Shown: positions 2,696 through 48,834 of the stretch, one piece after another
Layout of the letters: every line of letters starts with the position of its first letter
Position numbering within the stretch: the stretch's first letter is position 1
Source of the DNA: Patescibacteria group bacterium
Lineage (GTDB): Bacteria > Patescibacteriota > Patescibacteriia > PEXW01
Reading direction: 5' to 3'
DNA length: 64,000 bases
Assembly: GCA_038063455.1 (NCBI GenBank)
Contig: JBBTVB010000002.1
Location: 65,296-129,295 of the forward strand
Notes under the pieces: generated by a model
Told to the model about the DNA's origin: nothing
Database searches by the model: none
The model's input: only the letters and a program-made list of their open reading frames with translations
Translations under genes and position numbers: made by a program

Positions 2696-2705
2696 TTGGA
2701 TTAGT

Positions 2706-2867
2706 CACCCGTTCGATTCCCCCAATCCGGGGCCCCCACGAAGTTGGCGCGCAACGCAGTGAGCACGACTTCGTGGGGTTAAGCGAGGCTTCGCATCGAG
2801 AGCGGAGCTTTTACCGGTCACGGCAAAACGCAGCTCGACGTGCGAAACGAGCTGGTAGCGCCAAGGG
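2706..2867 (-). repeat. tandem repeat copy 1 (162 nt; period 221 nt)
   Basis: 161/162 identical to 2927..3088 (only A2813 vs G3034); ends with the last 15 nt of tRNA-Glu (CCCTTGGCGCTACCA, minus strand). Confidence 0.95.
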
Positions 2868-2930
2868 CCTGCCTGCCGGCAGGCAGGGAATCGCCCCTGA
2901 CGGGGCCGGGGTGCTACGCATGCTCGCACC
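2853..2930 (-). pseudogene. tRNA-Glu remnant: 3' acceptor/CCA end retained, body replaced by three GC hairpins
   Basis: occupies the position of tRNA-Glu in the other repeat unit; keeps CCCTTGGCGCTACCA and a GGGAATCG-CCCC T-arm trace; 20-nt palindrome CCTGCCTGCCGGCAGGCAGG inserted at the acceptor/T-stem junction; no cloverleaf. Confidence 0.55.
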
Positions 2931-2933
2931 CGT
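2906..2933. repeat. G-first hairpin motif copy A (CCGGGGTGCT-N8-TCGCACCCGT)
   Basis: shares both arms with 17670..17698 and 18353..18380. Confidence 0.7.
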
Positions 2934-3088
2934 TCGATTCCCCCAATCCGGGGCCCCCACGAAGTTGGCGCGCAACGCAGTGAGCACGACTTCGTGGGGT
3001 TAAGCGAGGCTTCGCATCGAGAGCGGAGCTTTTGCCGGTCACGGCAAAACGCAGCTCGACGTGCGAAACGAGCTGGTAGCGCCAAGGG
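2927..3088 (-). repeat. tandem repeat copy 2 (162 nt), overlapping the 3' end of tRNA-Glu
   Basis: see copy 1; contains an 11-bp stem CCCCACGAAGT/ACTTCGTGGGG, TTTGCCG-GTCA-CGGCAAA, and a GTTCGATTCCCC segment that is an inverted copy of the tRNA-Glu T-arm. Confidence 0.95.
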
Positions 3089-3148
3089 GAATCGAACCCC
3101 TATTTCTTGGATGAGAACCAAGTGTCCTAACCGGTAGACGATGGCGCC
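3074..3148 (-). tRNA. tRNA-Glu (anticodon CUC), CCA encoded
   Basis: manual cloverleaf: GGCGCCA/TGGCGCT acceptor (G1-U72), GTCT/GGAC D-stem, CTTGG-TTCTCAT-CCAAG anticodon arm, AGGGG-TTCGATT-CCCCT T-arm, ACCA. Confidence 0.9.
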
Positions 3149-3243
3149 CTAATATCTAAAAACGTGCAAATATGAGCCTACCTAATTACTCCCTAAGTAT
3201 CAAGAGTTACAACTTCGCAGCTAATTTAACAATTTTTGCAGAA

Positions 3244-3486
3244 TTATGGCAACGCTCGGAGTGCCAATACGTAAACCAAAACAGACAAAACTTGTAAGGC
3301 AATAAAACTCATGATTGGTATCGTGACATTTAATACTGGTTCTAATGTATTAACAGAAGTGCGTTGGAGATTAATTTTAAGTACAAACAACGCTATAATG
3401 CTTAAAGGGTAAAGGGGGTACTGAAAAAAATTAATAATATTTTCAGCGATACTCTGTGAATCGCTACATCCAAGGCTGGCGTACAC
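3244..3486 (-). CDS. hypothetical membrane protein fragment (80 aa), in frame with 3541..3882 across one TAA
   Basis: AT-rich ORF; hydrophobic; the frame continues from the upstream ORF after a single stop. Confidence 0.3.
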   Translation of the reverse strand: MYASLGCSDSQSIAENIINFFQYPLYPLSIIALFVLKINLQRTSVNTLEPVLNVTIPIMSFIALQVLSVLVYVLALRALP

Positions 3487-4909: not shown

Positions 4910-5788
4910 TTAAATATTGGCTTTGCCGGTGCTACCAAGCGCGCGCAACTTGCTGGCGACCAGTTCTTGAATTGCAACCATGCCTGGCTTAAAAATAATG
5001 CGCGGATCATATGCATCGGGGTCGCTCTTTAGGGTATTACGCAGTGCATCGACAAAAGCTAGCTTGAGCTCAGTGTTCATGTTGACCACCCGGATGCCGT
5101 GCTGAATGGCTTCTTTCAAAGACGCGGCACTCACCCCAGAAGCGCCGTGCAGCACCAAGGGCGTGTGCGGAATAGCTTGGCCAATCTCATCCAGCCGATC
5201 CAGGTCCAGGCTGTGGGTAGCGCCTTTGCGCATTTTCACCACCCCGTGCACGTTCCCCACTGCCACGGCCAGGGTATCCACGCCCGTGTCGGCCACAAAC
5301 TTTTTGGCTTCTTCCGGCTTGGTCATAAACGGCTCGCGTTCGACTAGGGTCATGGCTTCTTCCAGACCTTTCACCACGCCGAGCTCCCCTTGCACCCACA
5401 CTTCTTTGCGGTGCGCGTAGTCCACGGCTTGCTTGGTAAGAATAACATTCTCTTGCATGGGCATGTCTGACGCATCAATCATGATGGAAGAAAACCCAGC
5501 TTGCACGCAGGCGGCCACGCTGCGGAACGACTTGCCGTGGTCCAGATGGAGCGCGACCGGAATTGCACCGGCTTCGTCCCGCGCCACGTGCTCGACAATG
5601 CTGGTGATGACTTTCAAACCAGCGTAGGCAATGGTATTTTCGGAAACTTGCAAAATGACTGGGGATTTTTCCTGCACGGCCGCGCGCACCACGGCCAGCG
5701 TGGTTTCCACATTCTCCACGTTAAAGGCGCCAACGGCGTAGTCGCGGGCGATGGCATCGTGTATGAGCTCTTTAATGTGCGTGAGCAT
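4910..5788 (-). CDS. fba: fructose-bisphosphate aldolase, class II
   Basis: GAFNV, HLDHG, VLHGASG motifs of class II FBA. Confidence 0.93.
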   Translation of the reverse strand: MLTHIKELIHDAIARDYAVGAFNVENVETTLAVVRAAVQEKSPVILQVSENTIAYAGLKVITSIVEHVARDEAGAIPVALHLDHGKSFRSVAACVQAGFSSIMIDASDMPMQENVILTKQAVDYAHRKEVWVQGELGVVKGLEEAMTLVEREPFMTKPEEAKKFVADTGVDTLAVAVGNVHGVVKMRKGATHSLDLDRLDEIGQAIPHTPLVLHGASGVSAASLKEAIQHGIRVVNMNTELKLAFVDALRNTLKSDPDAYDPRIIFKPGMVAIQELVASKLRALGSTGKANI

Positions 5789-5791
5789 AGG

Positions 5792-6541
5792 TTAAATGAG
5801 TTGCGTAATGAGCTGCTTGAACGTGGTGGGATTCAGGCTGGAGCCACCCACGAGCACGCCGGCGATGGCGTCGCTATCCACAAACGACGCAACGTTGATG
5901 GGCGTGGTGCTGCCGCCGTACAAAATCGGCACGCTGTCGGCACCAGTGGGCAGCACTTCGCGCAAGGTGCTGCGAATAATGCGCGCCATGGTAAATGCGT
6001 CACTAGGCTCGATAGACTGGCCGGTGCCAATGGCCCACACCGGTTCGTACGCCACAATCAGTGAAAGGGAGGGGAAAGCACTCAAGAGCTCCACCCCACG
6101 GGTAACTTGTTCCAGCACCACCACTTCGTGTTGCTGTTTGCTGCGCTGCTCGTAGGTTTCGCCCACGCAGAGCACGGGCGTAATGCCGTGGGCCACAGCC
6201 TGCTGCACCTTGCGACTAACGTCATGGTCGGTTTCGTGGAAGTGCGCGCGCCGCTCGGAGTGGCCGCACAGCACGACGCTACAGCCCAAATCGACGAGCA
6301 TATCCATGGAGGTCTCGCCCGTGAACGCGCCATGCTCTTCCCAGTGCGCGTTCTGTGCGCCCCAACGAATAGGTGTGCCGCGCAGAGCTTCGGCGACCGC
6401 TGGAATAACCGACGCCGCCGGGCAAATAGTCACGCTCGCCGAGTGCAGCAGCTGCTGGCCTTGCAGCAACGTATCCATGAACACCATAGCTTCTTTGCTA
6501 TTCATGTTCATTTTCCAATTGCCAATGACGATAGGCTTCAT
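5792..6541 (-). CDS. tpiA: triosephosphate isomerase
   Basis: GNWKMN, GHSERR, AYEPVWAIGTG motifs. Confidence 0.96.
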   Translation of the reverse strand: MKPIVIGNWKMNMNSKEAMVFMDTLLQGQQLLHSASVTICPAASVIPAVAEALRGTPIRWGAQNAHWEEHGAFTGETSMDMLVDLGCSVVLCGHSERRAHFHETDHDVSRKVQQAVAHGITPVLCVGETYEQRSKQQHEVVVLEQVTRGVELLSAFPSLSLIVAYEPVWAIGTGQSIEPSDAFTMARIIRSTLREVLPTGADSVPILYGGSTTPINVASFVDSDAIAGVLVGGSSLNPTTFKQLITQLI

Positions 6542-17547: not shown

Positions 17548-17623
17548 TGGTGGGTCCGCTGGGAATCGAACCCAGAACCTTGGGCTTAAAAGGCCCCTGC
17601 TCTACCAATTGAGCTACGAACCC
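17548..17623 (-). tRNA. tRNA-Lys (anticodon UUU), CCA encoded
   Basis: manual cloverleaf: GGGTTCG/CGGACCC acceptor, GCTC-AATTGGTA-GAGC D-arm, loop CTTTTAA, CTGGG-TTCGATT-CCCAG T-arm. Confidence 0.92.
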
Positions 17624-17659
17624 AGAATTATCCTCTACTTCTTAAATAAACCTTACCTA

Positions 17660-17728
17660 CCCTGCTCTTCCGGGGTGCTCCCGATGGGTCGCACCCGTCC
17701 CTATGGGACCCAATTGAGCTACGAACCC
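17660..17728 (-). pseudogene. 5' fragment of tRNA-Lys (nt 1 to about 30) with a 41-nt hairpin insertion in the D-loop
   Basis: 19 nt identical to the tRNA-Lys 5' end (GGGTTCGTAGCTCAATTGG), then the insert, then GAGCAGGG; no anticodon or T arm. Confidence 0.7.
17670..17698. repeat. G-first hairpin motif copy B (CCGGGGTGCTCCCGATGGGTCGCACCCGT)
   Basis: 27/28 identical to 18353..18380; nested stems GGGTGC/GCACCC and CCC/GGG. Confidence 0.85.
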
Positions 17729-17774
17729 ATAACGGGCCTATTGTGCACTAATTACGCTAAATATACAAGCTCTC

Positions 17775-18352: not shown

Positions 18353-18380
18353 CCGGGGTGCTCCCAATGGGTCGCACCCG
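18353..18380. repeat. G-first hairpin motif copy C, in the 5' leader of the exonuclease gene
   Basis: CCGGGGTGCTCCCAATGGGTCGCACCCG. Confidence 0.85.
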
Positions 18381-41818: not shown

Positions 41819-41852
41819 CCCCGCACCACCTTTTCAAAAAGGTGGTGCGGGG
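41819..41852. repeat. palindromic hairpin CCCCGCACCACCTTTT-CA-AAAAGGTGGTGCGGGG
   Basis: perfect 16-nt arms; directly downstream of the M50 protease stop; family member. Confidence 0.9.
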
Positions 41853-43503: not shown

Positions 43504-44242
43504 TGCCTAAAAATGCCACGAGCCCCTCGGGCCGAAGCAACGGCCAGTCGTGCACACCCGGCACCCGGTGGAGCGTCGCCTGCGGTATGGCAGCAACAAG
43601 CTCTTCGCCAACGCTCACGGGTACAAAGGTGTCCTGCTCGCCCCACAGAATGGTGACCGGCACCGAAATGTTCTTTGCTTCTTCGCGCACGTCAAGGTGC
43701 TTGCACTCATCCGCCAAACGAAAAAGGTCCCGCGTATTACGCGCAAGGTTGTAGCCAAAGGGCTTTACAACGTTCTGCATGTACTTGTGCGGTGCATGCG
43801 CAATATTCTGCAATTCTTTTTGCAGCCACTGCACGTTCCAGCCTGTAGCCGTGCGCGCAATTGGGGCGCCGAGCGGATCGATGAGGATAAGCTTGCGCAG
43901 CACCCCAGCCGGCAACTGTGCAGCTGCCACCATAGCCACCGCCCCGCCGAACGAATGGCCGACGAGAGTGGCGTCCTGCAAGCCGAGATGCAGAATCCAG
44001 TCTGAATATAATTTGCCAAAATCTTGCACCCCAAAATCTGGTCGTGGCATGGCTTGGGATTTGCCGTGCCCGACGAGGGAGGGTGTGTACACATGGTGTT
44101 GCTGCGCGAGTAACTCACGAAGATGCCGCGTGCCGCCAGCATGCACGCTCCAACCGTGCAAAAAGACCAACGGCTCCCCTGCCCCAGCGCTATAGCTGTG
44201 GATGTGCAGACCGTTGACGTGGTGGGAGTGCTCGGTGTGCAT
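43499..44242 (-). CDS. alpha/beta-fold hydrolase
   Basis: HGW oxyanion region, GHSFGG nucleophile elbow, C-terminal HD..P. Confidence 0.8.
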   Translation of the reverse strand: MHTEHSHHVNGLHIHSYSAGAGEPLVFLHGWSVHAGGTRHLRELLAQQHHVYTPSLVGHGKSQAMPRPDFGVQDFGKLYSDWILHLGLQDATLVGHSFGGAVAMVAAAQLPAGVLRKLILIDPLGAPIARTATGWNVQWLQKELQNIAHAPHKYMQNVVKPFGYNLARNTRDLFRLADECKHLDVREEAKNISVPVTILWGEQDTFVPVSVGEELVAAIPQATLHRVPGVHDWPLLRPEGLVAFLGK

Positions 44243-44329
44243 GTCTTTATCTTACAGGCCTTGACGTTGATACACCACTATGGCAGTCTCAAACAAAACC
44301 ATAACCAAACCCAGAATGGAGAACAGGTC

Positions 44330-45052
44330 ATGTCAAATGTACTTGAACAAAATGCCATACAGAAACTAGCGGAAAGACTGCGAGACCAAACGGGTCAGCC
44401 AGTACTTATCTTGGTAGAATGCCAAGTGCCATCGGAAACTGAAGAATTTTTTTCTCCTCGCGTGCCGCTAGATAGAAAAAGTGACTCTTTAGACAATGTA
44501 CGAGGCAAAGCTTTTGGTGTACTGAATGGTGAAACGCTAACTGTGGACAACGAAAATCATCCAGGATTACTTGGCATACCAGTATCGTGCTGTAGCACAA
44601 AGATGAACTTGCGTGATGATATTACTGTTCAGCATGGTCATTTCTGGCTAAGCGGAATTGGCAAAGACCTCATGGTAAATAGCAACACCTATGCCACCGT
44701 ACTCATCGGCGCACAAGAAATAGGCGAATGGTTACATGAAAACCGTCACCATCCCTTCTCGCGAACCTCTAAAGAATTACTGGAAATATGCGCTCTGGCA
44801 CGAAGGCTACAAGTCAGCCTCCAACAATGGGGGCCTATATATAGTGTCGTTGAAAAAACAGTCAAAAGGCTGCGGGCTGATGCCGAAGAAAGTAAACGTA
44901 CACTTCATGAATCTGCAATGAAAATGCTCGGGGAGACAAAAAAAGTGAATTTCTCCGCAATTGACAGCTATTCAGAGATCAGTAAAGATGTACTACAACT
45001 TACGGGTGAAGCGCTCCCTAAGTTGGAACTGCAGCTCACCTTGACTACGTAA
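44330..45052 (+). CDS. hypothetical protein (240 aa), lower-GC ORFan
   Basis: ATG after a GGAGAA SD; no family recognised. Confidence 0.5.
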   Translation: MSNVLEQNAIQKLAERLRDQTGQPVLILVECQVPSETEEFFSPRVPLDRKSDSLDNVRGKAFGVLNGETLTVDNENHPGLLGIPVSCCSTKMNLRDDITVQHGHFWLSGIGKDLMVNSNTYATVLIGAQEIGEWLHENRHHPFSRTSKELLEICALARRLQVSLQQWGPIYSVVEKTVKRLRADAEESKRTLHESAMKMLGETKKVNFSAIDSYSEISKDVLQLTGEALPKLELQLTLTT

Positions 45053-46040: not shown

Positions 46041-47284
46041 CCAAGAATACCCGCTCAGTACTTATCGTTGGCAGCATTGTTGTGCTTGCAGCAGCGGGCT
46101 ATGGCGCGTACTTTGCCTACCGCAATTTGCGCGGGGCCGGCCCGGCGATTAAACCGCTGTCGGCTGACATTACCGAACTGCTCAATGTCAACACATCTGG
46201 CAACACCAATACCAGCACAAATGTCAGCACGCAAGTGACGCGCAACACGACCGGCTTCCCACTCACGCTCCCAGCAGGGTACAGCATTCGCGTGCTGGAA
46301 AAAAACCTGCCCAGTGCTCGCGACATTGCCTTGGATAGCAATGGCAATGTCTGGGTGAGCCAGCTTGCAGAGGGTAAAGTAGTACGTTTGGATATGCAGA
46401 ATGACAGCGTAACGAAAAAAAATGAAGTATTTACCGGCCTGGGCAACCCGCACGGTTTGGCGTTTGATCCGGCTGACCCGAAGATGCTGTACGTTGCGCA
46501 GGAACGCAGCCTCTCCCGCGCTGAGGTGAGCGAGCCGACGCCGAAGTTGCAAAAAATTCTGGACTTGCCCAACGGCAACAACCACAACCGCCGAACCTTA
46601 GCTTTTGGTCCGGATGGCAAGTTGTACGTAAGCATTGGCTCAACCTGTAACGTGTGTAAGGAAGACGATGCACGGAGTGCGACGGTCTATTCCCTCAACA
46701 AAGATGGTAGCGACTTCAAGGTTTTTGCTACCGGCCTGCGCAATGCAGCGTTCTTAGCCATCCGCCCGGCCGACGGTAAACTCTGGGCCACAGAAAATGG
46801 CCGCGACCTTATTGGCGACGATATCCCGCCGGATGAAGTGAACATTGTGGAACACGGCAAGTTCTACGGTTGGCCGTACTGCTACGGCAAGAATGTTCAG
46901 GATACCAGCTTTGACCGCTCGAGCAGCGCCAAGGAGCGTTGCACCAGTGCCACACCGTCGCACATTAATCTGCAGGCTCACTCTGCACCACTGGGCTTAG
47001 CCTTTATTCCCGATACCGAGGCCTGGCCCGCTGATTGGCGCGGGGACTTGCTGGTCGCTTTCCATGGTTCCTGGAATCGGACAGACCCAACGGGTTACAT
47101 GCTCGTACGCATCGATATCAACGCGGATGGGTCAGCAGGTGAAACCTATACGTTCATTTCCGGCTGGCTTACCAAGGCTGGTGGCGCGCTGGGCCGGCCG
47201 GTGGACGTACTGCCGACGGAGGATGGGAAGCTCTATATCACTGACGATAAAGCTGGCCTGGTGTACATCGTGGAAAAATCCTAA
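46037..47284 (+). CDS. PQQ-dependent sugar (glucose/sorbosone) dehydrogenase-like beta-propeller, membrane-anchored
   Basis: GLGNPHGLAFDP, LAFGPDGKLYVSIGS, ENGRDLIGDDIPPDEVN, GWPYCYG motifs. Confidence 0.8.
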   Translation: MTKNTRSVLIVGSIVVLAAAGYGAYFAYRNLRGAGPAIKPLSADITELLNVNTSGNTNTSTNVSTQVTRNTTGFPLTLPAGYSIRVLEKNLPSARDIALDSNGNVWVSQLAEGKVVRLDMQNDSVTKKNEVFTGLGNPHGLAFDPADPKMLYVAQERSLSRAEVSEPTPKLQKILDLPNGNNHNRRTLAFGPDGKLYVSIGSTCNVCKEDDARSATVYSLNKDGSDFKVFATGLRNAAFLAIRPADGKLWATENGRDLIGDDIPPDEVNIVEHGKFYGWPYCYGKNVQDTSFDRSSSAKERCTSATPSHINLQAHSAPLGLAFIPDTEAWPADWRGDLLVAFHGSWNRTDPTGYMLVRIDINADGSAGETYTFISGWLTKAGGALGRPVDVLPTEDGKLYITDDKAGLVYIVEKS

Positions 47285-47307
47285 CATGGGTTTACTTTGC
47301 TGAGTCA

Positions 47308-47336
47308 CTGGGGTACAATGCCCCAGCTTTTCTTTC
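47308..47336 (+). terminator. rho-independent terminator
   Basis: CTGGGG-tacaatg-CCCCAG followed by CTTTTCTTTC. Confidence 0.6.
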
Positions 47337-47388
47337 ACTTTGTGTGTCTGGGTCGGGGTGTGGCGCAGTTGGTAGCGCGCTTGCATGG

Positions 47389-47420
47389 CCCCGCACCATT
47401 CGCTCCGCTTAGGTGCGGGG
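47389..47420. repeat. hairpin H1 CCCCGCACC-N14-GGTGCGGGG inside the anticodon loop of the outer tRNA-Pro copy
   Basis: perfect 9-bp stem; arms identical to H2 and to the first 9 nt of the 41819 hairpin. Confidence 0.9.
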
Positions 47421-47450
47421 TATAGGTGCAAGATTCTCATCTCGCTGGGT

Positions 47451-47523
47451 CGGGGTATAGCGCAGTTGGTAGCGCGCTTGCATGGGGTGCAAGAGGCCGC
47501 CGGTTCAAGTCCGGCTACCCCGA
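47451..47523 (+). tRNA. tRNA-Pro (anticodon GGG); CCA not encoded (ACCC)
   Basis: manual cloverleaf: CGGGGTA/TACCCCG, GCGC-AGTTGGTA-GCGC, CTTGC-ATGGGGT-GCAAG, GCCGG-TTCAAGT-CCGGC; embedded in an 18-bp leader/trailer helix (47440-47457 with 47516-47533). Confidence 0.9.
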
Positions 47524-47550
47524 CCCAGCGAGAGGCAGTGTTCAAGCCTG

Positions 47551-47582
47551 CCCCGCACCCGAGCGTAGTGAGTGGTGCGGGG
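47551..47582. repeat. hairpin H2 CCCCGCACC-N14-GGTGCGGGG between the T-arm and 3' acceptor strand of the outer copy
   Basis: perfect 9-bp stem; its loop is 9/14 identical to the reverse complement of the H1 loop. Confidence 0.9.
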
Positions 47583-47679
47583 GTCCCGCCACCCCGACCC
47601 AGACATGGAAGGCAATGCCAAAAAAATTACACGACTGCTTGTCGCTTACAGGATAAATACTCTACAGTAGGAACAGCCT

Positions 47680-48834
47680 ATGTCTGAAACCCACCCAATC
47701 CCAGAGGTGAAAAGGGTCGAAAGCGAACAAGAAAAAGCCGAAAGGCATGCGCGGGAACTTGCTGATTTTTTTCAGGAGATGCAAGAGCATGGCCTGGCGC
47801 CCGAAGCCATGTACCAGCACGGGAAAACCTACGCAGCGAACGAAAACGGTACGGTGGGTACACTCGACCGGCCGTTCGGTGTTTTCCGCGTGGCCGAAGA
47901 GCACCAGCGCGTGGTCGGCTCCAAAGAACGGGCAATTTATAAAACCCAAATGGAATCCAAAACCGGAGCGGGTATCGACCGGGAAGTGGCCTTTTATCAA
48001 AAATTCCTTCCCCAGGTCCAGGCCGCCCTGTCTCCGGAAGTCCGCGAGGGCCTGGCTTTTCCAAAATTGTTAAAGGTATTTGAAAAGGAAGGTAAGGCAA
48101 AAGCCATCCTGCTCTCCGAGCTCCAAGGCGACCTCCTGGGGGTCCATGATTTTGGCTACGAGGGGAAAGCCACGACTGCAGATTTTCAAAGAATTATTGA
48201 GCTAGTGCGGGCCGTGCAAAAAATTTCCCCGGCAGAATTGCAGGCCGCATCTCCTTCCACGAAATCCATTGATCATGCGAACAGTGAAGCGGAGTGGCTA
48301 AGCCAGGATAAAGTCGACCTCATTGGGAAGCAGCTGGGTGAAGGCTACGATACCAAAAGCCTACAGGTCATTACCGAAGCGGAGAAGTCTATCCGCCAGC
48401 AGCCCGAACGCGTACTTTCGGAGGATGTCTTCCAAACCAATCTCATGGTGTTGCCGGATGGGCGGACCGCTTCTTTTGACTGGGAGCGTCTGGAAATCGG
48501 CACCAACCCGGGGCACGACTACGCCAAGTTTGCTTCCCGCATGTGGACCGAACCCGAAAAGCAGCGGGAGTTTATTCGCATGACGCTTGCCGCGAACCAA
48601 GATACCCCCGGGTTCAAAGCCATGTTCAAGTCGAACCTGCTGGCGACAGAGTACAGCCACCTCTTCCGCCACTATGCCGGCATTGTCGAGCGGGCAGAAG
48701 CTGACCCGAGTCGCTATGCCAATCGACCGCAATTACTAGCCGAGGCAGAACAAGCAGCGCCGGCACTCAAACAAGCAATCGCCGAACTACTTGATGACAC
48801 CGGCCCCTGGGCGGAAGAAAAACTTCCAGAATGA
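47680..48834 (+). CDS. protein-kinase-like phosphotransferase (APH/choline-kinase family-like)
   Basis: SEDVFQTNLMV (xxDxxxxN catalytic loop) and SFDWERLEIG..PGHDYAKF resemble the APH family; the usual catalytic His is Ser. Confidence 0.55.
   Translation: MSETHPIPEVKRVESEQEKAERHARELADFFQEMQEHGLAPEAMYQHGKTYAANENGTVGTLDRPFGVFRVAEEHQRVVGSKERAIYKTQMESKTGAGIDREVAFYQKFLPQVQAALSPEVREGLAFPKLLKVFEKEGKAKAILLSELQGDLLGVHDFGYEGKATTADFQRIIELVRAVQKISPAELQAASPSTKSIDHANSEAEWLSQDKVDLIGKQLGEGYDTKSLQVITEAEKSIRQQPERVLSEDVFQTNLMVLPDGRTASFDWERLEIGTNPGHDYAKFASRMWTEPEKQREFIRMTLAANQDTPGFKAMFKSNLLATEYSHLFRHYAGIVERAEADPSRYANRPQLLAEAEQAAPALKQAIAELLDDTGPWAEEKLPE

Follow-up and report, generated by a model that had tools for sequence, protein, structure and literature searches.

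Can a complete tRNA gene sit inside a second, interrupted tRNA gene in a bacterium? This question is raised by a 395-nt spacer between a pyrroloquinoline quinone (PQQ)-dependent sugar dehydrogenase gene and a phosphotransferase-like gene of a Patescibacteria group bacterium (assembly GCA_038063455.1), within a stretch of 64,000 nt of contig JBBTVB010000002.1 that was analysed as a whole and is called the window here. A previous sequence-only reading of this spacer had described a complete tRNA-Pro(GGG) gene nested in a disrupted copy of the same gene, the latter being either a dead pseudogene or a processed precursor scaffold. Our analysis makes another answer reasonably probable, namely that the locus consists of truncated tandem copies of tRNA-Pro struck by a palindromic repeat, hence of debris at an unstable locus and not of a new type of tRNA. 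The observations behind it are the anatomy of the locus, the homology of its hairpins, a clean locus in one relative (L331), alternative states in two others (L327 and L332) and self-remnants at further tRNA genes.

Detection of tRNAs with ARAGORN, including its intron options, and with Rfam, including permissive searches with E up to 10, led to the same result: the locus contains exactly one tRNA, at 47451-47523. It matches RF00005 over model positions 1-71 of 71 with 67.3 bits (E = 1.2e-14; gathering score 29), and the normal tRNA-Pro(GGG) described previously at this place is thus confirmed by both programs. Its end reads A73 followed by CCC (ACCC), so that CCA is indeed not encoded. The gene carries A7, A9 and T66 and differs from the allele of its clade in the T stem as well. 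No second tRNA corresponding to the outer copy was found by Rfam at E up to 10 or with the intron options of ARAGORN. Most likely, as judged from sequence, the inner gene is the only functional gene of the locus and the sole maker of this tRNA.

On both sides of this gene, parts of a tRNA-Pro(GGG) are repeated, as had been recognized previously (Table 1). On the left, 47354-47388 corresponds to positions 1-35 of the inner gene with the identity of 33/35 counted before (repeat search; blastn-short E = 1.3e-15). Including the leader CTGGGT, it belongs to a 41-nt direct repeat of 95% identity, 47348-47388 and 47445-47485, with mismatches only at positions 7 and 9. The same segment is identical in 35/35 positions to the functional genes of the relatives L089, L327, L331 and L332, and would thus carry the ancestral allele (G7, G9). 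The leader TGGGT followed by CGGGGTG recurs in L327 and L332. Right after G35, in the arrangement ATGG / insert / GGT, the left copy is broken by the 36-nt palindromic insert A, a hairpin followed by TATA, after which the anticodon arm resumes with the exact 9-mer GGTGCAAGA; this part of the initial description stands, since the 9-mer occurs twice. A homologous piece, TTTGCACGA, lies in the same place upstream of the intact gene of L327.

The right remnant begins at tRNA position 39, with GCGAGA for GCAAGA, and the last six nucleotides of the trailer of the intact gene (GCGAGA, 47528-47533) double as its start. There is a gap of 0 nt between the inner gene and the 3' fragment in the window, compared with a spacer of 45-61 nt in the relatives L004 and L327. 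The alignments from which the first part of this remnant (47528-47546) was read show 88% identity to L004 over 91 nt and 88% to L327 over 33 nt, and the T-stem 5' strand is 2 nt short. The second part is identical to L004 in 23/23 positions and contributes to a 20-nt repeat of the 3' end (47583-47602 and 47509-47528, 90%). Between the two parts lies the palindromic insert B. The sequence-only reading had reported here a diverged T arm with a 9-nt loop, followed by a second copy of the hairpin. The hairpin does have the identical 9-bp stem, but it is an inverted copy and, according to the alignment of the relatives, is placed inside the T loop; the 9-nt loop corresponds to an alternative local pairing, and ARAGORN does not call a tRNA from that reconstruction. 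Since positions 39-44 occur in both remnants, these do not represent one gene cut once. Consequently, the proposal that the inner unit was inserted into one outer gene does not hold well, and the outer copy is better read as two truncated copies, the left one extending from -9 to 44 and the right one from 39 to 76+9.

Could the outer copy be a working gene, whose three intervening sequences would be removed from the RNA in an archaeal style or as degenerate group I introns, with the inner tRNA released? After removal of the three segments by hand, ARAGORN does call a tRNA-Pro from the outer copy, with a defective T stem. Furthermore, group I introns are found at position 35/36 in tRNA genes of Patescibacteria (Nakagawa et al. 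2026, PMC13011429); insert A shares both phylum and position with them, and the 5' halves of a tRNA-Ser cluster in the relative L011 break there too. On the other hand, the inserts measure only 36-37 nt and lack a group I ribozyme core, the copy that carries them is truncated, and no intron family, group I included, matched 47250-47700 in Rfam at E up to 10. The initial remark that the anticodon insert is too short for a group I intron was therefore sound, and the idea that the hairpins are group I intron leftovers was rejected for want of any Rfam signal. Disrupted tRNA genes of archaea, comprising multiple bulge-helix-bulge introns, split tRNAs and permuted tRNAs (PMC4033280, PMC3978253), resemble this locus in the non-canonical positions (anticodon, T loop) and in the complementary GC-rich sequences beside tRNA halves. 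In contrast to these, the present host is bacterial by its window proteins (LigA, GatCA), and an intact gene occupies the middle of the locus. Inspection of the junction reveals an internal loop of 4 x 7 nt between the anticodon stem and the stem of hairpin A, and not the 3-nt bulges spaced by 4 bp of a bulge-helix-bulge motif. The interrupted copy is, moreover, damaged in its T stem, has positions 39-44 duplicated and is not kept by the relatives. We regard a functional outer tRNA as extremely improbable; the locus has neither the core of a group I intron nor the motif and conservation of an archaeal disrupted tRNA.

Orthologous loci in relatives, reached via the flanking proteins, show what became of the copies in other genomes. 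In L331 (GCA_964486505.1), a single clean tRNA-Pro(GGG) follows the same terminator-like flank, with zero remnants; this is the uninterrupted arrangement that an alignment of orthologues had been expected to reveal, and it fits the ancestral state. In L004/L005, whose PQQ protein is 81% identical, an intact gene is followed by a 61-nt spacer and by the same 3' remnant with hairpin B, though these contigs end inside the tRNA. In L327 (PQQ protein 64% identical), the intact gene carries the 'outer' allele and is bordered by a left stub and, on its other side, by a 3' remnant. This stub consists of the leader TGGGT with CGGGGTG and, further on, the 9-mer homologue mentioned above, and has neither D arm nor hairpin A; in the 3' remnant, neither the right arm of hairpin B nor the terminal acceptor piece is present. 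In L332 (GCA_041738495.1), the left copy is intact, the right copy consists of positions 45-59, hairpin B and positions 60-76, and a further 3' remnant comes after it. L327 and L332 are close, with a neighbour protein 95% identical and flanks mostly identical in the alignment. Their segments 5575-6010 and 2985-3420, respectively, have the same outer tRNA ends and unrelated interiors of about 190 nt, and the single intact tRNA-Pro stands on the left in L332 and on the right in L327. The two are best described as structural alleles of one locus. Collectively, these comparisons indicate that the structure of the locus varies between genomes, always with exactly one intact gene, and that the outer copy is not conserved as a whole. 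The orthologues show only varying and decaying pieces of it, the very pattern that the sequence-only reading had named as a sign of decay debris.

The two acceptor stems, CGGGGTG/CACCCCG outside and CGGGGTA/TACCCCG inside, had been put forward as compensatory changes. The difference between G7-C66 and A7-T66 is real, but it is no evidence for maintenance of the outer copy: in L089, L327, L331 and L332, the functional genes themselves carry CGGGGTG/CACCCCG together with G9 and the remaining 5' half. Since the outer allele is that of working genes in relatives, the difference is one between two alleles, each at home in a working gene. A diversity-generating retroelement was also considered as its source and was rejected, the differences between inner and outer sequences not being limited to adenines of one strand. 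Likewise rejected was an inversion via the 16-bp terminal repeats, suggested by the position of the unit on the opposite strand relative to the PQQ dehydrogenase gene in L004 and L327. Homology between the genomes extends 10-30 nt past the repeats on both sides, so that the inversion breakpoints lie outside the unit.

The allelic difference bears on a further possibility, a true nesting in which a complete tRNA-Pro segment was inserted into the anticodon arm of a resident gene, duplicating 6 bp (GCAAGA/GCGAGA) and replacing its function. Transposition, or homology-facilitated illegitimate recombination with incoming DNA, could be the route. The 6-nt overlap of the remnants (39-44) does resemble a target-site duplication, and the inner allele, which has a T stem and residues 7, 9 and 66 unlike those of its clade, resembles alleles of other Patescibacteria (L014, L107, L132). 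In L011, one locus even holds halves of three tRNA-Ser alleles. These differences are, however, few, and ordinary compensatory evolution could suffice for them. The inner and outer flanks share the same core (CTGGGT/ACCCAG), as local duplication predicts, and in L332 and L327 the left and right copies are separate units with an additional 3' remnant downstream, which implies at least three tandem units. Altogether, we find true nesting quite unlikely.

The assemblies deserve attention as well. Identical proteins and DNA were found in contig CAYIMS010000001.1 of a Patescibacteria metagenome-assembled genome (MAG), GCA_964364675.1, from Hainich groundwater. The 3' side of the locus is identical in an independent Logan contig (L002) and, except for a few low-coverage base differences, the same in an ENA contig, Hain_H32... 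(L003, coverage 3). An assembly artefact, in which tandem tRNA-Pro genes or foreign ones were collapsed or chimerically joined, would find some encouragement in the contigs L002, L004 and L005, which break inside the tRNA, and in L003, which is joined to the 5' half of a foreign tRNA-Pro. Yet unique junctions such as the hairpins and spacers cannot come from mis-joining, and the inner A7-T66 and outer G7-C66 are each self-consistent. With the 3' side reproduced in L002 and L003 and homologous layouts in four other assemblies (L004/L005, L327, L332) from different samples, the artefact raised as a possibility by the earlier reading has next to no likelihood. As to L003 itself (region 1-230), the contig matches the window from the inner tRNA onward save for a few A-to-C differences, and its upstream part is unrelated sequence with the foreign tRNA-Pro 5' end (CGGGCTATGG). 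It is probably a chimera whose parts were joined across the conserved tRNA core.

Table 1. Features of the tRNA-Pro locus, its neighbours and the other tRNA loci of the window.
Feature	Position	Strand	Remark
PQQ-dependent sugar dehydrogenase gene	46037-47284		gene on one side of the tRNA-Pro locus
Terminator-like hairpin	47308-47326		CTGGGGTACAATGCCCCAG, then a T-rich run; just upstream of the tRNA unit
Left arm of outer 16-bp inverted repeat	47345-47360	+	leader TGTCTGGGT and acceptor 5' strand CGGGGTG of the left dead copy; 100% complementary to 47590-47605
5' remnant, tRNA-Pro positions 1-35	47354-47388	+	acceptor, D arm, anticodon stem 5' strand, loop to G35
Palindromic insert A, 36 nt	47389-47424	+	hairpin 47389-47420 and TATA; at tRNA position 35/36 of the left remnant; perfect 9-bp stem
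End of left remnant, tRNA positions 36-44	47425-47433	+	GGTGCAAGA; exact repeat of 47486-47494
Spacer and leader of intact gene	47434-47450	+	TTCTCA, then leader TCTCGCTGGGT; 5' half of the extended acceptor helix
Intact tRNA-Pro(GGG)	47451-47523	+	ARAGORN; Rfam RF00005
Trailer of intact gene	47523-47533	+	ACCCAGCGAGA; pairs with the leader in the 18-bp perfect inverted repeat
3' remnant, part one, tRNA positions 39-59	47528-47546	+	GCGAGAGGCAGTG--TTCAAG; from alignment with L004 and L327
Palindromic insert B, 37 nt	47547-47583	+	CCTG, hairpin 47551-47582 and G; in the T loop of the right remnant
3' remnant, part two	47584-47605	+	TCCCGC (T-stem 3' strand), CACCCCG (acceptor) and trailer ACCCAGACA; right arm of the outer inverted repeat
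Phosphotransferase-like gene	47680-48834		gene on the other side of the tRNA-Pro locus
Third hairpin with the same 9-bp stem	41819-41852	+	CCCCGCACC...GGTGCGGGG; unrelated intergenic spacer; from pattern search
tRNA-Lys(TTT)	17548-17623	minus	remnant upstream
tRNA-Lys remnant	17627-17732	minus	leader and positions 1-19, 41-nt double-hairpin insert in the D loop, positions 21-29
tRNA-Glu	3074-3148	minus	its last 15 nt and the 147-nt element behind them are duplicated in tandem
Element X, 147 nt	2705-3073	minus	GCTCGTTTCGCACG...; two copies, 99% identical, each with the last 15 nt of tRNA-Glu
Junction between the two copies of tRNA-Glu 3' end and X, 59 nt	2853-2925	minus	hairpins and degenerate T arm

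A second property of the locus is the pairing of leaders with trailers. The inner inverted repeat is perfect over 18 bp (47440-47457 with 47516-47533), exactly as described initially. The outer one is perfect as well, over 16 bp and not the 14 bp first counted (TGTCTGGGTCGGGGTG / CACCCCGACCCAGACA, 47345-47360 with 47590-47605). In every member of the clade, L331 included, the leader pairs with the discriminator, CC and the trailer over 9-14 bp, and the sequences differ. Among the first 12 pairs, Watson-Crick pairs number 11/12 in the inner and 9/12 in the outer helix of the window, 11/12 in L331, 9/12 in L332 and 10/12 in L327, and 6/12 in the more distant L089. Among 130 tRNAs examined, such helices occur in 3; leader and trailer also pair over 16 bp at a tRNA-Pro(CGG) of the unrelated MAG L020. 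The helix is probably a real feature of the precursor, or a product of persistent mutational bias toward palindromes, and it may serve processing. Only for this helix would the processed-precursor-scaffold idea of the earlier reading survive. Leader-trailer processing stems of rRNA operons, which are RNase III substrates, are alike in their long complementarity flanking a mature RNA and in keeping structure and not sequence. Here, in contrast, a single tRNA is flanked, the acceptor stem is continued directly, discriminator and CC are paired, and the stem is known from sequence.

The inserts A and B belong to one family. The pattern of the shared 9-bp stem occurs 3 times in the window (0.00 expected), and 47389-47420 and 47551-47582 are 84% complementary over 32 nt, so that A and B are inverted copies. 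Hairpin B of the window, of L004 and of L332 and the reverse complement of hairpin A can be aligned as four copies of a family of about 36 nt. L004/L005 and L332 carry the same insert between TTCAAG and TCCCGC, with one compensated stem pair (CCTCGCACC/GGTGCGAGG). The third stem match, at 41819-41852, is flanked by TCAA on both sides and is absent from the orthologous spacer of L004, where the blastn alignment has a gap of about 38 nt exactly there. Together with the right arm of hairpin B missing in L327, this makes presence/absence differences at orthologous sites, and mobility of the hairpins is plausible.

For a second family (GGGTGC-N11-12-GCACCC), 4 matches were counted where 0.18 would be expected. 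Its 28-nt hairpin (CCGGGGTGCTCCCRATGGGTCGCACCCG) occurs twice, at 17670-17697 and 18353-18380, with 96% identity and 683 nt apart; the former copy lies inside the tRNA-Lys remnant, the latter in the spacer that precedes an RNase T-like exonuclease gene, and another copy lies in the tRNA-Glu junction. Counting three copies per family, 4/6 hairpin copies lie within tRNA-gene remnants or beside them, in or close to what used to be tRNA loops. In a census of hairpins whose stems are perfect over 8 bp or more, 36 were counted, most of them unrelated and terminator-like, and a single repetitive extragenic palindromic (REP) family littering the genome was rejected on this ground. The stem is not diagnostic by itself, as a scan of IMG/VR with it returned more than 120 generic terminator-like hairpins, and a metagenome scan with GTCCCGCCACCCCGACCC gave almost only chance matches in GC-rich genomes.

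Small palindromic mobile repeats are known as REP elements and BIMEs (mobilised by RAYT), terminator-like SPRITEs, Rickettsia palindromic elements (RPEs) and the GC clusters or hairpin elements of mitochondria (PMC10969869, PMC4478555, PMC2800124). The hairpins described here resemble them in being short and GC-rich, in combining a conserved stem with a variable loop, in apparently occurring in several copies per genome, in showing one orthologous presence/absence difference and in being inserted into genes for structured molecules. They differ in their size of about 36 nt, much shorter than RPEs, in the number of main-family copies (three in 64 kb), in the absence of a clear target duplication at the tRNA sites and in the lack of a cognate transposase in the 10 open reading frames (ORFs) scanned.

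Returning to the truncated tandem copies, the locus could have arisen as follows. Local tandem duplication, in part incomplete, would have supplied further copies of tRNA-Pro, of which the left one was truncated after position 44 and the right one lost positions 1-38. The palindromic repeat of about 36 nt would then have entered the anticodon loop of the left copy (35/36) and, in opposite orientation, the T loop of the right copy, as a mobile or a templated insertion. The surviving 5' part on the left and 3' part on the right, together with the self-complementary leader and trailer inherited from the ancestor and presumably a genuine feature of the precursor, would mimic nesting. A hit in a single-copy essential tRNA gene would be tolerated only beside a duplicate. 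Since hits would persist only where a duplicate is present, disrupted copies would always be found beside an intact one.

Several observations weigh against this explanation. The 5' side of the layout is seen in the MAG contig only, hence in one assembly. The leader-trailer helix in the remnant-free L331 and its covarying sequences are not what simple debris would give. In three lineages, the 3' remnant core shows 81-88% identity, compared with 66-87% for the neighbouring coding DNA, which is unexpected for freely drifting debris in a streamlined genome, and a few stem pairs of the hairpin family are compensated. As for mobility, of the three stem-identical copies of the main family in 64 kb two are homologous throughout (inverted) and the third shares the stem only; reading of the sequence gave no clear target-site duplication at the two tRNA inserts, and none of the 10 ORFs scanned next to the three tRNAs has a transposase or integrase domain. 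Furthermore, the two complementary inserts lie at nearly equal distances from the inner helix (19 and 17 nt). Instead of two independent insertions, this could point to a long RNA stem under selection or to one arm of the palindrome having been copied from the other. Hairpin A could thus alternatively originate from template switching, copied from the opposite arm of the quasi-palindrome, an origin that the near-symmetric placement would fit.

Do these points argue for a selected precursor scaffold, in which arms and hairpins are kept as a stem of about 80 bp that steers or regulates processing, for instance by RNase III? The fold of the 271-nt region speaks for it. At -178 kcal/mol (z = -11.9), the minimum-free-energy structure is one long interrupted helix with the cloverleaf at its tip, in which inserts A and B pair with each other, and the nested helices anticipated by the sequence-only reading are therefore the predicted optimum. 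The leader-trailer helix, shared by every clade member with differing sequences and otherwise rare, the identity of the remnant core and the compensated hairpin pairs point in the same direction. However, L331 has the helix without the outer arms, which are hence dispensable, and L327 and L332, closely related as they are, have wholly different arms. Hairpin A, the outer 3' end and the right arm of hairpin B are all missing from L327, and consensus folding applied to the conserved 3' remnant core yields a weak hairpin only. In addition, the remnants at tRNA-Lys and tRNA-Glu are one-sided and cannot form such a stem. A selected scaffold comprising the outer arms is, in our view, unlikely.

The truncated tandem copies at tRNA-Pro have counterparts at other tRNA genes. 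Self-fragments accompany 3/3 tRNAs of the window (Pro, Lys, Glu) as well as the tRNA-Ser cluster of L011 (JGI 3300014208). Among 15 tRNA loci scanned in other Patescibacteria, 14 are without a self-fragment and one, in L130, has a weak 13-nt match. Outside the phylum, 4 of about 114 control tRNA-Pro(GGG) loci have a repeat of at least 19 nt within 600 nt. The control set came from a scan of contigs with the anticodon arm TTGCATGGGGTGCAAGAGG, a query otherwise too generic, which gave 120 tRNA-Pro loci from many phyla, a few Patescibacteria loci among them. By this comparison, self-remnants with hairpins appear to be general in this lineage and rare elsewhere.

In L011, the patchwork of tRNA-Ser(TGA) lies at 1490-2010, upstream of the orthologous phosphotransferase gene, and gives two ARAGORN calls. 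One tRNA-Ser gene in it is intact; beside it there are a free 3' half and two 5' halves that stop at position 35, and the breaks fall at 35/36. In the second call, the 5' half does not pair with its 3' half, and the 5' half that does match is located another 50 nt upstream. The acceptors represent no fewer than three alleles. At the tRNA-Glu locus, the junction between the duplicated ends contains the hairpin GGGTGCGAGCATGCGTAGCACCC, a degenerate direct copy of the T arm and a perfect palindrome, CCTGCCTGCCGGCAGGCAGG, before CCCTTGGCGCTACCA.

The CCA of tRNA-Glu is followed immediately by element X, whose far end is formed by an inverted T-arm-like piece, GGGGGAATCGAAC. In another Patescibacteria MAG, L089, a homologue with 82% identity (nhmmer E = 6.7e-17) lies at 466-600, right after the CCA of a tRNA-Pro(GGG), and the consensus of X folds into two long helices with 49 pairs, 8 of them compensated. 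No hit was obtained in Rfam and 0 in IMG/VR. Element X could be an undescribed structured RNA or an element tied to tRNA 3' ends.

Fragments of this kind recall the scars of integrases. In such a scenario, crossovers of tyrosine integrases in the anticodon and T loops, reportedly the classical sublocations of integrase crossover (Williams 2002, Nucleic Acids Res), would have displaced fragments, and the integrated elements would have been deleted down to their hairpin ends. The inserts lie exactly in these two loops, 3' fragments are found downstream of intact genes in direct orientation, and the controls L117 and L119 show typical 3' att-like (attachment-site-like) repeats of 19-20 nt. A 3' repeat is present at the tRNA-Pro locus too, but its distance from the gene is only 0 nt here and 45-61 nt in relatives (0-61 nt overall), without an island and without an integrase domain in the neighbouring ORFs. 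Integrase events do not normally leave 5' fragments upstream, as found here for Pro, Lys and Ser. Moreover, the inserts duplicate no core sequence, stem-identical hairpins also occur away from tRNAs, and IMG/VR scans with the leader and 5' end and with the second hairpin family gave 0 hits. An origin from integrase scars is accordingly very unlikely. Similarly, tRNA pseudogene fragments left by tandem duplication or as att remnants are alike in being partial direct copies beside an intact gene at a rearrangement hot spot, with breakpoints in or near the anticodon and T loops. The present case differs from them in the remnants on both sides, 5' and 3' fragments together mimicking one enclosing gene, in the lack of an island or integrase, in affecting every tRNA examined in this lineage and in the alternative states of close relatives.

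The surroundings of the locus vary as well. Homologues of the region around the terminator-like hairpin lie upstream of tRNA-Pro in L327, L331 and L332, where the upstream gene differs. No promoter could be assigned with confidence at the tRNA-Pro locus. Farther away, a 309-aa ORF (44123-45052) without a Pfam match is located between the abhydrolase and NUDIX genes, which are only 36 nt apart in L004; for this reason the ORF would be a lineage-specific gene or an insertion.

A broader reading would have the tRNA loci of this lineage shaped by an active, lineage-specific system, with small palindromes that enter tRNA-gene loops by preference, survival only through tandem duplicates, exchange of the structural alleles between lineages and, around tRNA-Pro, a selected double-stranded scaffold for processing or insulation, made up of the retained arms and the covarying leader-trailer helix. 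If so, the nested architecture would be functional and not mere debris; we consider this conceivable and unlikely.

The locus is of interest mainly as a marker of unusual tRNA-locus dynamics in its clade. For annotation, it illustrates that sequence alone can mimic a 'tRNA within tRNA', and that self-remnants and hairpin inserts are to be expected around tRNA genes of candidate phyla. The covarying leader-trailer helix of tRNA-Pro and the 147-nt element at the CCA ends of different tRNAs are leads on tRNA precursor processing. If the pattern proves to be genome-wide, structural turnover in this very small and streamlined genome would take place mainly at tRNA loci, and these would provide a natural example of essential single-copy genes surviving insertions via duplication.

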